A stretch of 64,000 nt of DNA from Candidatus Puniceispirillum sp. (GCA_013822015.1 PNJU01000002.1:128500-192499); one strand, 5' to 3'. Counted from the stretch's first letter, positions 15,946-19,480 are shown. Made by a program: numbers and translations. The notes: generated by a model not told the origin, from the sequence alone.

Positions 15946-16042
15946 GGGCGTCCTGTAAAATGAATTTTATGTAATCTGCATATGTGTTCTTTTGTCAAAA
16001 AGGTCAATAAAAAAATTCAGCAGTCGTATTAAGTATCAAATC

Positions 16043-16056
16043 TGGTGCGCGCACCA
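16043..16056. promoter_or_regulatory. Perfect 14 bp GC-rich palindrome TGGTGCGCGCACCA in the AT-rich divergent intergenic region (candidate operator)
   Basis: Self-complementary by inspection. Lies about 100 bp upstream of the start of 13918..15945 and about 335 bp upstream of tssBC. Confidence 0.3.
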
Positions 16057-16390
16057 TGTAAGGGATGTACGCCACTAAGGGTTTAAAATTCAAAACACGT
16101 CTTTAAACTAAATTTTGTTTAAATTTTAATTTTTTTCGAAAAATACACAAACTATTTATTTTAAAATTTACTCAAATGCACGATTAAAAATTCTTATTTC
16201 ACTATCACCTTGAATTTGAATATTTTGCATTTTTTCTATTTCCAAAAAACCTCAAAATATTTTTTGAAAAATTTATGTATTTTTACGCCTTCTTAAGAAT
16301 ATTGCGCTTTAATGAAATACAGGTAGAGGGAAAAAGGATTCACCAAAAGTCTCTGCTGAGTGGATAAAACAAAGAATAGGGGGAAATGAA

Positions 16391-18286
16391 ATGAGAACAA
16401 GTACACAGCATTTGCTCGACGTCATCCGCCCTCCCCGCGTACAAATTACGTACGATGTGGAGATTGGTGGCGCCGTTTCTTCCCGAGAACTTCCATACGT
16501 TCTCGGTGTCATGGCAGATTTATCTGGCCAATCACAGGTCGCACGCGTACCTCTTAAGGCACGCAAGTTCGTCTTGGTTGCTGGCGACTCTTACGCCGAC
16601 GTCATGGCGTCCATTGCACCACGTGTTGTGCTGCGCGTTGCAGACTGCATAAAGGGGGGTAACAACCTTCTTGGTGTTGACCTAACTTTTAGAACCCTTG
16701 ACGACTTTGAGCCAGCAAGCATCGTTGCAAACGTGCCTGCCCTTAAGGCCCTCATGGATAGCCGCACACGTTTGAACGATATGCTTGGCAAGCTTGACGG
16801 AAACGACGAGCTCAACAAACTTCTTGACGGTGTTCTTGCAGGTGGCGGTAAAGATAAGGTTGATCCCGCAAAGGTTGTCACTGACGGCAACATGGTGCGC
16901 GATCCATCTCAAGCTGACTACGCCAAGACATTGGTGCAAGAATTCTTGGATCAAGCAGGCAAGGAGAACTCCGTCAGTGGTGACTCCATTGCGCTTGTTA
17001 GCCAGCGCATTGCTGCCCTTGACGCACTGATTTCCTTGCAGCTTGACGCCATCGTTCACGATCCAGCTTTCCAAAAGCTAGAGGCTTCATGGCGTGGACT
17101 CTTCTTCCTTGTCACAACCATCGATGTCAGCTCACGCATTCAAATTCGTCTTTTGAATGTGACAAAGGACGAGCTACGTTATGATCTCGAGAAGGCCGTT
17201 GAGTTCGACCAAAGCAACCTCTTCAAGAAGATCTACGAAGAAGAGTACGGCACCTTTGGTGGCGCACCTTATTCATGCTTGATGGGTGACTTTGAGTTTG
17301 GCCGCACACAGGCTGATATGGCGCTTTTGGTGAAGATTGCACAAGTGGCATCGGCTGCGCACGCACCCTTTGTCTCTGGCGCAGGCCCAAACCTGTTTGA
17401 CTTGGATTCCTTCATGGATCTTGGCCTCCCACGTGATCTGTCAATCATTTTTGAGAACACAGAGCTCGGCAAATGGCAGTCCTTCCGTGAGAGCGAAGAC
17501 TCACGCTATGTGGCCCTTGCGCTCCCACATATCTTGATGCGCGCACCTTACGGACGTGACGACAATCCAGCCCTGGGTGTCAACTACCAAGAAACAGTGG
17601 ACGGCGTCAATAATGGCATGTTCTGCTGGGGTAACGCGGCGTGGGCTTTGGCACAACGCGTCATGAACTCGGCCACACTGTACGGCTGGCCAGCAGCCAT
17701 TCGCGGCGTTGAAGGTGGTGGACTTGTGGAAGATCTTCCTTACTACACCTTCAAGACAACGGACGGTGATGTGGCCCTCAAGTGCCCAACGGAAGTCGCC
17801 ATCAGTGATCGCCGTGAAAAGGAACTCAGTGATCTTGGTTTTGTGGCCCTGTGTCACTGCAAGAACCGCGACTACGCCGCGTTCTTTGGCAGCCAAACAG
17901 CGCAAAAGCCACTTCACTACAATCTGGATGAGGCCAACTCAAACGCTGCGTTGTCTGCGCGCTTGTCCTACATCCTGGCTGCCTCACGCTTTGCCCACTA
18001 CATCAAGGCAATCATGCGTGACAAGATTGGTAGCTTCATGAACCGAGGGGATGTTGAGCGCTACTTGAACAAGTGGATCTCTCAATATGTCTTGCTTACC
18101 GACTACGCTGACCAAGCATCCAAGACAAGGTTCCCTCTACGTGAAGCCCGTGTGGATGTGATGGACGTTCCTGGTAAGCCCGGAAGCTACAAGGCAACCG
18201 TGTTCCTGCGACCACACTTCCAGTTGGAAGAGCTCACCGCCTCCATCCGTTTGGTGGCAACCCTTCCTAAGCCAGCGTTGTTCTAA
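16391..18286 (+). CDS. Type VI secretion sheath protein, TssB (VipA)-TssC (VipB) fusion
   Basis: The N-terminal approx 150 aa read PRVQITYDVEIGGAVSSRELPYVLGVMADLSG...LTFRTLDDFEPASIVANVPALKALMDSR (TssB). From about aa 185 the sequence reads LQLDAIVHDPAFQKLEASWRGL...FDQSNLFKKIYEEEYGTFGGAPY...AHAPFVSGA...WQSFRESEDSRYVALALPHILMRAPYG...FLRPHFQLE (TssC). One continuous ORF, with AGGGGGA RBS and ATG at 16391. Confidence 0.9.
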   Translation: MRTSTQHLLDVIRPPRVQITYDVEIGGAVSSRELPYVLGVMADLSGQSQVARVPLKARKFVLVAGDSYADVMASIAPRVVLRVADCIKGGNNLLGVDLTFRTLDDFEPASIVANVPALKALMDSRTRLNDMLGKLDGNDELNKLLDGVLAGGGKDKVDPAKVVTDGNMVRDPSQADYAKTLVQEFLDQAGKENSVSGDSIALVSQRIAALDALISLQLDAIVHDPAFQKLEASWRGLFFLVTTIDVSSRIQIRLLNVTKDELRYDLEKAVEFDQSNLFKKIYEEEYGTFGGAPYSCLMGDFEFGRTQADMALLVKIAQVASAAHAPFVSGAGPNLFDLDSFMDLGLPRDLSIIFENTELGKWQSFRESEDSRYVALALPHILMRAPYGRDDNPALGVNYQETVDGVNNGMFCWGNAAWALAQRVMNSATLYGWPAAIRGVEGGGLVEDLPYYTFKTTDGDVALKCPTEVAISDRREKELSDLGFVALCHCKNRDYAAFFGSQTAQKPLHYNLDEANSNAALSARLSYILAASRFAHYIKAIMRDKIGSFMNRGDVERYLNKWISQYVLLTDYADQASKTRFPLREARVDVMDVPGKPGSYKATVFLRPHFQLEELTASIRLVATLPKPALF

Positions 18287-18322
18287 GGCGCCTTGGGATA
18301 ACAAACGAAAGGAGACTAGAAG

Positions 18323-18943
18323 ATGAGTAATGATGTAACAGACGGGATCTACAACCTGATCGAAAGGATGGCCTCTCGCAACCTATCCGTGGGAGAGCAA
18401 AACGTCGACGGCGAAAAGTACTCCCACTCCGCCAAAGGTAACGAGTGGATGTGCCAGATTGTCTCAAGCCAAGGGGGTGGAAACCTCACCAACAGCAACG
18501 AGAAAACCTATGGCGCAACCCACACGCTCTTGTTTGATCACCTCTTTGATATTTCAAGGCGTACAAACGCCAATATCGTCGCGTCACATAAGAATGACTC
18601 AGCAAGGACGAGGTTCTCCAACCCCTTGATTAAAATTCCAAACGATATTTGGACACCAAACCTTGAGAATATCTTGATTAGTGGTATCAAAGTTGATACC
18701 ATTAACTTGAAGAGGTTCACAAACTCTGGGGAAGTGAACGAGATCGTTCAGGATATTACCTTTACCGACAATATCCTGCAGGCTTTGGTTCAAGACGACG
18801 ACTATGTGTGGATAGAGTTCCGCCCCACGGTCTACACAAACGTCATCAACCGACGCAAGCAAGATACACAGGCAGCCGGCTCCAACAGCTTTACGTACGA
18901 TATCTCGCAAGCACTTATCAGCAATGGTGGCGGCGGAGGTTGA
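18323..18943 (+). CDS. Divergent Hcp (TssD)-like tube protein candidate, 206 aa, poly-Gly C-terminus
   Basis: Position between the sheath gene and tssE. AAAGGAG RBS. Loose Hcp-like pattern (VDGEKYSHSAKGNEWMCQIVSSQGG; HTLLFDHLFDISRRT; QDITFTDNILQALVQ; YVWIEFRPTVYTNV...SFTYDISQ). Longer than a typical Hcp and ends in GGGGG. Confidence 0.5.
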   Translation: MSNDVTDGIYNLIERMASRNLSVGEQNVDGEKYSHSAKGNEWMCQIVSSQGGGNLTNSNEKTYGATHTLLFDHLFDISRRTNANIVASHKNDSARTRFSNPLIKIPNDIWTPNLENILISGIKVDTINLKRFTNSGEVNEIVQDITFTDNILQALVQDDDYVWIEFRPTVYTNVINRRKQDTQAAGSNSFTYDISQALISNGGGGG

Positions 18944-18985
18944 GCTCCAGCGCCATAAAAAGCCATAAAAACAGGAGGCCACTTT

Positions 18986-19480
18986 ATGGTCCAACTAAAC
19001 AAAAAAAAGATTCTATCAAAACCTGGGGCGCTTGCGCCCCTTTTTGATAGGCTTGTTGATCTTGAGCCTGAGTTAAGTCAGGAGCTCGACCCTTTTGCTT
19101 CCTTAAGTGCCCCGGCACTTCAAGAATCCATTGCCCACGAGCTTTCCTTGGTCTTCAACACGCGGCCCACGGCCAAGCGCCTTGCAGGGGAAGACATCCC
19201 TGACAGCGTCTCTGATTACGCCCTGCCCACTTTTTTTGGCCTGGCTGACTTTTCATGGTTGGACGCGGGCAAAGACTTCTATCTTCATCGTATTATTCGC
19301 CTTTTAGAGGACGTAATTCGCCACTATGAGCCACGCCTTGCCAATCCAAAGGTGAAGGTACGCGAGAGGGACCGCGCCATTTTGGGCCTCCATGTGGACA
19401 TCACGGGCACCATTGATCCCGGCACAGGCATCCAGCAAGTCAATTTCCCCTTAAGTATCGCCAATCTTTTCAAAGGGTAG
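18986..19480 (+). CDS. tssE: Type VI secretion baseplate subunit TssE (gp25-like)
   Basis: LFDRLVDLEPE...ESIAHELSLVFNTRP...SVSDYALPTFFGLADFS...IIRLLEDVIRHYEPRLANPKVKV...LGLHVDITG fits the TssE/GPW-gp25 pattern. AGGAGG RBS. Confidence 0.8.
   Translation: MVQLNKKKILSKPGALAPLFDRLVDLEPELSQELDPFASLSAPALQESIAHELSLVFNTRPTAKRLAGEDIPDSVSDYALPTFFGLADFSWLDAGKDFYLHRIIRLLEDVIRHYEPRLANPKVKVRERDRAILGLHVDITGTIDPGTGIQQVNFPLSIANLFKG

Follow-up and report, generated by a model that had tools for sequence, protein, structure and literature searches.

The closest described non-fused relatives of the sheath reported here, judged by similarity and not by a tree, are those of the H3 type VI secretion system (T6SS) of Pseudomonas aeruginosa and of the Azotobacter vinelandii T6SS, from which the best solved structure (PDB 9N4V) is available; we take both systems to belong to subtype i4b of the Boyer/SecReT6 scheme. 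They are encoded by contiguous 13-gene clusters with separate TssB and TssC, a canonical Hcp (PF05638), ClpV and a paired vgrG-ywqK, and the H3 cluster, as read from the P. aeruginosa locus L009, has the order vgrG-ywqK / clpV-tssG-tssF-tssE-hcp-tssC-tssB / tssJ-like-tssK-tssL-tssM-tssA. In the Holosporales families Bodocaedibacteraceae, Paracaedibacteraceae and Caedimonadaceae, the T6SS genes are dispersed over separate, transcribed loci (tssB-tssC-hcp, tssK-L-M-A, tssG-F and ywqK-vgrG), with an 'Hcp1-like' gene adjoining tssC (PMC8163844). The gene table of Ca. Bodocaedibacter holds a single tssB/tssC pair, as separate genes of 513 and 1455 nt, and does not list ClpV (PMC8163844). According to a 2025 review, a T6SS is conserved in almost all Holosporineae genomes, is 'probably non-standard' with the tube and an outer-membrane component apparently missing, and was lost in Holospora itself (PMC11909080). 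Here we describe a 64,000 nt stretch of DNA (hereafter the window, in whose coordinates features are given) from a metagenome-assembled genome (MAG) labelled 'Candidatus Puniceispirillum sp.' at NCBI (MBA4117655-MBA4117697). It carries a stand-alone module of three genes encoding a fused TssB-TssC sheath, a divergent Hcp, which we call HcpL, and TssE. Most probably, this module encodes the tail of a functional but split T6SS, the partner loci of which would lie elsewhere in the same genome.

The module (MBA4117660.1-MBA4117662.1) occupies positions 16391-19480 on the plus strand and consists of three co-directional open reading frames (ORFs) of 631, 206 and 164 aa, with 36 and 42 nt between them and a strong Shine-Dalgarno ribosome binding site (RBS) in front of each (Table 1). 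The original prediction had placed a sheath fusion, an Hcp-like gene and tssE between 15946 and 19480. These three gene calls proved correct according to equivalogs, profiles and fold comparison, but the operon itself starts at 16391, while 15946 only marks the end of the upstream divergent gene.

The first ORF matched the Pfam domains T6SS_VipA (PF05591, aa 10-150, E 1e-42), VipB (PF05943, aa 205-505) and VipB_2 (PF18945, aa 514-625). Since it also passed both NCBIfam equivalogs, with 141 bits for the TssB model TIGR03358 (cutoff 97.25) and 642 bits for the TssC model TIGR03355 (cutoff 271.5), its sequence identifies it as a genuine TssB-TssC fusion. Residues 2-151 aligned with residues 2-151 of the 187 of A. 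vinelandii TssB (9N4V_B, E 1.4e-41), and residues 161-629 with residues 22-491 of the 493 of TssC from the same structure (9N4V_A, E 5.7e-197). The TssB part is 48% identical to H3 TssB, and the TssC part is 61% identical to H3 TssC and 57% to Azospirillum TssC. The AlphaFold2 (AF2) model of the fusion, with a predicted local distance difference test (pLDDT) score of 69 overall and 69-85 over the junction (aa 141-170), retrieved both subunits of 9N4V, 5N8N, 3J9G and 5MXN as top Foldseek matches, the TssC part being 61% identical to TssC of 9N4V. The T6SS-i equivalog matches, together with 61% identity to a solved T6SS-i sheath, rule out that the protein derives from an extracellular contractile injection system, a phage tail or a T6SS-iv. 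As both sheath domains reside in one protein in all 120 best database homologues, the single ORF is not an assembly artefact. Thus, unlike the usual sheath protomer of two separate, co-folding polypeptides, the sheath protomer encoded here is a single polypeptide.

The alignments to 9N4V end on either side of a nine-residue connector, which therefore stands in for approximately 36 C-terminal residues of free-standing TssB (residues ~152-187) and 21 N-terminal residues of free TssC, neither of which has a counterpart in the fused sheath. In the family alignment this connector is the shortest among the fused sheaths, whose linkers range from essentially none in the clade of the window to 60-90 A/P/T-rich residues in proteins labelled Holosporaceae. 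Fused sheaths of 645-683 aa are also found where the cluster is contiguous and its Hcp canonical (metagenome loci L109 and L128, and tssB3-tssC3 of P. aeruginosa PA99), and, conversely, non-fused sheaths occur in stand-alone modules (L126, L134). This implies that fusion and dispersal are separate traits. The 683-aa PA99 sheath was considered as a natural relative from a full cluster and was rejected, as it belongs to an ordinary H3-T6SS in which the C-run immediately ahead of the tssB3 stop codon has lost a single base, joining tssB3 to tssC3 (CP042967.1; L005 10480-10640 compared with L009 12600-12760). Exactly this protein occurred in 27 blocks, and the reading covered 24 contigs that encode it; the fusion thus represents either a genuine variant of a sublineage or a homopolymer error that recurs.

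The second ORF is annotated as 'hypothetical protein' at NCBI. Single-sequence scans of the 206-aa product against Pfam and NCBIfam gave no match, PF05638 and the NCBIfam Hcp models did not recognise this protein or, in scans of one sequence at a time, any of 12 members of its family at a threshold as lenient as E<=10, and BLAST against H3 Hcp3 found nothing. Its gene lies between the sheath gene and tssE, which is the position of hcp in the H3 and Azospirillum clusters. A profile built from 61 HcpL sequences matched more than 10 Hcp chains in the PDB (among them 7FCF, 9QPE, 3V4H, 5XEU, 4W64 and 3EAA) with E values of 2.6e-10 to 2e-4 over nearly the whole length of Hcp. Concordantly, hhalign paired HcpL residues 42-204 with residues 4-165 of a canonical Hcp3-type alignment (probability 98.6%, E 5.5e-16). 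The AF2 model of HcpL reached a pLDDT of 58.7, with 70-80 for residues 100-200 and less than 50 for residues 1-40 and 57-98, and all of its PDB matches at E<=1e-3 in Foldseek were Hcp chains or Hcp1-containing entries (fusion constructs), at target-normalised TM-scores of 0.5-0.7. As profile search, hhalign and structure comparison agree, the 206-aa protein is identified as a very divergent Hcp, the presumed tube protein, with the model being of moderate confidence and restricted to the monomer. Compared to canonical Hcp/TssD (PF05638; PDB 4W64, 3HE1, 1Y12, 7FCF) it shares the fold, with full-length profile homology to the core, but it differs by only ~13% identity, a 41-aa N-terminal extension, a Gly-rich tail and the failure of single-sequence family recognition.

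A homologue search with HcpL returned 13 close relatives only, and a hidden Markov model (HMM) search of 1.84 billion cluster representatives 65 members (50% clustering) of ~185-200 aa. In one genome pair HcpL is 30% and the sheath 71% identical, indicating that HcpL evolves much faster than the sheath. Among the loci examined, HcpL was present only where the module stands alone, and the canonical type of Hcp in complete clusters. Some stand-alone modules, from intermediate lineages, carry two tandem Hcp-like genes (L008 12244-13575, L126 12050-13567, L134 3148-4344). Of these, L134 has a near-canonical Hcp next to an HcpL, a combination that resembles an intermediate stage of evolution, and L008 has no tssE beside its tandem pair.

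The third ORF scored 67.3 bits with the TssE equivalog TIGR03357 (cutoff 53.2) and also matched PF04965. At its 3' end, 11 nt are shared with the convergent ORF 19470-20048. In the 5' part of tssE, 40 nt past the start codon, a GC-rich hairpin precedes a T-run (GGGGCGCTTGCGCCCC TTTTT) at 19025-19040 (+); it may be a chance occurrence, as terminator-like matches in the region are no commoner than in shuffled sequence.

Table 1. Features of the stand-alone T6SS module and its surroundings in the window, and ORFs located behind tssE in three relatives.
Locus	Feature	Position	Strand	Basis
Window	AT-rich divergent intergenic region, 445 nt	15946-16390		sequence reading
Window	fused sheath TssB-TssC	16391-18286	+	Pfam, NCBIfam, AF2/Foldseek
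Window	TssB (small sheath subunit) domain, aa 1-151	16391-16843	+	9N4V_B alignment
Window	connector, nine residues, aa 152-160	16844-16870	+	family alignment, AF2
Window	TssC (large sheath subunit) domain, aa 161-631	16871-18286	+	9N4V_A alignment
Window	divergent Hcp (TssD), HcpL, 206 aa	18323-18943	+	family profile, hhalign, AF2/Foldseek
Window	HcpL N-terminal extension, 41 aa	18323-18445	+	hhalign
Window	HcpL Hcp core, aa 42-204	18446-18934	+	hhalign
Window	TssE, gp25-like baseplate wedge subunit, 164 aa	18986-19480	+	TIGR03357, PF04965
L001	ORF after tssE, 440 aa	13390-14712	same as tssE	no Pfam entry
L006	ORF after tssE, 435 aa	13383-14690	same as tssE	no Pfam entry
L006	ORF after tssE, 333 aa	14776-15777	same as tssE	no Pfam entry
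L174	ORF after tssE, 484 aa	13207-14661	same as tssE	no Pfam entry
L174	ORF after tssE, 412 aa	14751-15989	same as tssE	no Pfam entry

Pfam or NCBIfam scans of the ~60 large ORFs across all 64 kb detected no T6SS family other than those of the module genes and assigned the surroundings to housekeeping functions (NusB, Mdh, DnaB, RadA, GlnA, Alr, Lon, MlaE and others). Because divergent components could escape these models, 13 custom HMMs (VgrG, DUF4280/PAAR, YwqK, ClpV, TssA, TssE, TssF, TssG, TssJ, TssK, TssL, TssM and canonical Hcp) were built from complete clusters of a metagenome scan, each from 3-25 sequences plus the H3 protein. Applied to every window ORF of at least 70 aa at E<=1, they matched TssE alone (E ~1e-25), and no VgrG, PAAR, YwqK, ClpV, TssA, TssF, TssG, TssJ, TssK, TssL or TssM was found. 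As a control, the H3 cluster of L009, whose proteins had seeded the models, scored for all families, and in the independent loci L010, L109 and L128 each family was recovered in at least one locus with E values of 1e-11 to 1e-214, except for TssA, VgrG, PAAR, YwqK and ClpV, which these loci do not all contain. The absence of further core genes, previously claimed for at least 13 kb on each side of the module, is thus confirmed and extended to the 16 kb on its left and the 44 kb on its right, and the core genes are not clustered at one locus here. The L009 record (NZ_CP137515.1, 'plasmid pHPA0170-2', 91 kb) is a P. aeruginosa plasmid entry that contains the whole H3-T6SS together with msuE, ssuD and zapE, which are its usual neighbours on the chromosome, and may represent a misassembled or excised chromosomal segment.

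Comparative synteny, which the original prediction had proposed as a check, revealed the same stand-alone operon of fused tssBC, HcpL gene and tssE in seven relatives, each time between different housekeeping genes and, by precomputed Pfam and custom HMM matches, with no other Tss gene within +-10 kb of the module. Sheath identity to the window was 86% in L001, 71% in L003, 68% in L006, 64% in L174, 60% in L093, 59% in L175 and 58% in L007. Scanning metagenomes with the sheath brought up mainly complete i4b clusters in which the sheath is not fused, and no seed nearer to the window clade than H3. An IMG/VR scan returned a single unrelated match of 48%. A GTDB scan with a TssK alignment (H3, Azospirillum, Paraburkholderia, Cupriavidus), ranked by similarity to the first sequence of that alignment, listed 80 loci, nearly all of them from Pseudomonas and related gammaproteobacteria.

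To assess selection on the module, the window was compared with L001 by the Nei-Gojobori method. The proportions of non-synonymous (pN) and synonymous (pS) differences were 0.10 and 0.67 for the sheath (dN/dS 0.066), 0.17 and 0.74 for HcpL (dN/dS 0.058), and 0.29 and 0.67 for TssE (dN/dS 0.22), where dS is near saturation (1.65-3.2), such that the dN/dS values are rough and their direction is unambiguous. With pN far below pS in all three, the module genes are maintained by purifying selection. This bears on the possibility that the module is the relic of a degraded T6SS cluster that has lost its other genes, with these three still to decay. The presence of only three core genes in 64 kb and the loss of the T6SS from Holospora (PMC11909080) would fit such a history, which nevertheless appears extremely improbable, as all three ORFs are intact and have strong RBSs, pN is much smaller than pS throughout, and relatives with as little as 58% sheath identity still show the same arrangement of three genes. 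The integrity of the module across this range and dN/dS values of ~0.06-0.22 contradict a relic, against which the intact long ORFs with good RBSs had been cited earlier.

Conservation of the module is also relevant to a second explanation, according to which a complete canonical cluster with its own tssB, tssC, hcp and tssE is located elsewhere in the genome and the module is a redundant, extra tail cassette. Genomes with a T6SS often hold several copies of Hcp, and L008 and L126 have HcpL duplicated in tandem. However, selection has preserved the module as a unit throughout a deep clade, one tssB/tssC pair is listed among the T6SS genes of Ca. Bodocaedibacter (PMC8163844), and an extra sheath would be expected to decay or vanish in small symbiont genomes, all of which renders this explanation very improbable.

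The changing flanks could alternatively point to a mobile tail cassette that was recently inserted, for example in a genomic island that also comprises the secreted Ank/TPR genes nearby. Each of the relatives examined has other flanks, the DNA upstream is AT-rich, and the neighbours are eukaryote-like or secreted. On the other hand, no integrase, transposase, tRNA or repeat boundary was seen beside the module (no dedicated tRNA or repeat scan was made), the GC content of the module genes (48-50%) equals that of the window, and a relative with 99% identity carries the same left-flank genes on its contig, namely malate dehydrogenase and DUF1013/TrcR. Moreover, sheath identity of 86% in the nearest distinct relatives lies in the same range as RadA identity in its nearest matches (79-92%), which suggests vertical descent of the module, with the relatives for sheath and RadA not being matched genome to genome. 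We therefore give a recent insertion only a very small chance. The module had also been described as sitting amid secreted, effector-like genes. The neighbours indeed have signal-peptide-like N-termini and Ank or TPR repeats, but they are not part of the module, since they are absent from the 86% relative L001 and hence unlinked to the module there.

A further explanation is a reduced contractile module that operates without canonical T6SS partners and uses unrelated or highly divergent baseplate and membrane components. The partner genes of this genome are not among the genes read, the tube protein is beyond single-sequence recognition, so that other partners might be as well, and a review termed the Holosporineae system 'non-standard' (PMC11909080). 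In addition, lineage-specific ORFs of 333-484 aa follow tssE in L001, L006 and L174. Against this, both sheath and TssE are well conserved, with a complete system as their closest match, published Holosporales with the same kind of locus have tssF, tssG, tssK, tssL, tssM, tssA and vgrG elsewhere (PMC8163844), the ORFs behind tssE are not shared among relatives and do not occur in the window, and no observation requires non-canonical partners. This explanation is thus quite improbable. The ORFs behind tssE, all on the same strand as tssE, are candidates for lineage-specific cargo or effector genes. Family searches with the 440-aa ORF of L001 and the 435- and 333-aa ORFs of L006 found nothing convincing, the only match being MutL for the 435-aa ORF (E 0.076), and neither the 440-aa nor the 435-aa ORF resembled the other or any ORF of the window.

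Of the options of a relic, a split system or a module with non-canonical partners that had initially been considered, the split system is best supported, by the lineage-wide stand-alone module and by the published dispersal, while the relic is contradicted. The contiguous H3 cluster breaks into the same blocks as the dispersed Holosporales loci. Like Ca. Bodocaedibacter vickermanii, Paracaedibacteraceae and Caedimonadaceae, the window combines a stand-alone locus for sheath and an Hcp-like protein with a host-associated alphaproteobacterial background and an Hcp that is hard to recognise. Dispersal had first been taken as unusual, but it is the published norm for the Holosporales, with which the organism appears to affiliate, and this lineage-specific architecture explains the orphan character of the module. 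In the split system that we favour, the ancestral contiguous cluster would have been broken into a few conserved blocks, as published for Holosporales symbionts, and the three genes, which form one operon, would encode the cytoplasmic tail parts of a T6SS of the H3/i4b lineage, with which the operon shares the local order tssB-tssC-hcp-tssE. These parts would be a contractile sheath made from a single fused TssB-TssC, a fast-evolving Hcp tube and the TssE baseplate wedge, and the TssJ/L/M membrane complex, the TssF/G/K baseplate, TssA and the VgrG spike would be encoded at other loci of the same genome. Hcp hexamers would stack on the VgrG-capped baseplate, the fused sheath would polymerise around the Hcp stack, and its contraction would expel tube, spike and cargo into a eukaryotic host cell.

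Several points weigh against a split, functional T6SS. Only the 64-kb window of the genome was read, and we infer the loci for TssF, TssG, TssK, TssL, TssM, TssA and VgrG. The near-saturation of dS limits the precision of the selection test, no promoter was recognised upstream of the operon, whose expression is presumed, and the affiliation of the organism with Holosporales is based on one marker and MAG labels and differs from the NCBI label. Finally, tssB and tssC form one ORF here and are separate in Ca. Bodocaedibacter, and tssE belongs to the locus here and is unlisted there. The window region also departs from the Holosporales symbionts in its GC content of ~50% and its chemotaxis genes, and one relative has flagellar genes.

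The N-terminal segment of Vibrio VipB (TssC) carries the ClpV-binding helix. Because the junction of the fused sheath is truncated and nearly linkerless, HcpL is fast-evolving, private to stand-alone modules among the loci sampled and extended at its N-terminus, and ClpV is unlisted in Ca. Bodocaedibacter, it is conceivable, if doubtful, that the window clade possesses a structurally distinct T6SS tail with a remodelled sheath-tube interface and ClpV-independent recycling, ClpB-driven or single-shot, adapted to delivery into eukaryotic hosts.

The promoter of the operon is presumably located within the AT-rich intergenic region (Table 1). The 450 nt 5' of the sheath start codon, an interval slightly larger than this region, have a GC content of 29% compared to ~50% in the window, and an RBS (GGGGGA) lies directly 5' of the sheath ATG; most relatives likewise have an AT-rich upstream region with a G-rich RBS. 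A search for the sigma-70 consensus upstream of the operon and for sigma-54 -24/-12 elements in the window and eight relatives gave no match. A perfect 12-bp palindrome, GGTGCGCGCACC, at 16044-16055 forms a GC island within the AT-rich region and is a possible regulator binding site.

RadA of the window has its best named match in a Caedimonas sp. MAG (Holosporales, Caedimonadaceae; 67%), followed by Micavibrio, Azospirillaceae and other alphaproteobacteria (62-63%), and the nearest named relative of the sheath is a 'Holosporales bacterium' MAG (71%). This one marker and the MAG labels, without a tree, make an affiliation of the organism with Holosporales probable, and since RadA and sheath are both closest to Holosporales MAGs, the label Ca. 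Puniceispirillum is probably wrong. The window further encodes a methyl-accepting chemotaxis protein with a C-terminal PilZ (c-di-GMP binding) domain (11594-13600, +), and flagellar genes adjoin the module in L001. These two observations suggest a motile lineage, unlike the classical reduced Holosporales.

Among the genes around the module, the divergent upstream neighbour (13918-15945, -) encodes a 675-aa protein with a signal-peptide-like N-terminus and TPR repeats, whose C-terminal ~70 residues weakly match YoeB/RelE-like toxins below cutoff (TIGR02116, E 1e-3; PF06769, E 0.014), ahead of a Ser-/Lys-rich tail. It could be a secreted effector with a toxin domain, and is one of the neighbours unlinked to the module in the 86% relative. 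Downstream, 19470-20048 (-) and 20180-20740 (-) are tandem paralogues of ~190 aa (31% identity, E 6e-25) with signal-peptide-like N-termini and no family match. They are followed by a 601-aa ankyrin-repeat protein, also with a signal-peptide-like N-terminus (20804-22609, -), and a 591-aa F-box and leucine-rich-repeat (LRR) protein is encoded at 60166-61941 (-). The latter two are of a type typical of bacteria manipulating eukaryotic hosts, and the Ank, F-box/LRR and TPR proteins of the window together fit a eukaryote-associated lifestyle.

As the stand-alone arrangement was already known, the sheath fusion and the Hcp identification are modest news. In the searchable literature we found no report that a single-chain sheath prevails in a large clade of alphaproteobacteria, that the 'hypothetical' neighbour clearly belongs to a divergent family of Hcp, or that the HcpL family co-occurs with stand-alone modules. 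An apparent oddity is thereby turned into a correct annotation, and annotation pipelines that demand clustered core genes or a Pfam match for Hcp are likely to under-call such T6SSs. Natural single-chain sheaths with linkers of 0 to ~90 residues, together with the 1-nt route to a fusion in H3, may interest researchers engineering or imaging T6SS sheaths. These data leave the general view of T6SS biology unchanged. Within the family, a recognisable divergent Hcp beside the sheath in the stand-alone lineages sampled bears on the statement that the tube is missing from the Holosporineae T6SS (PMC11909080).

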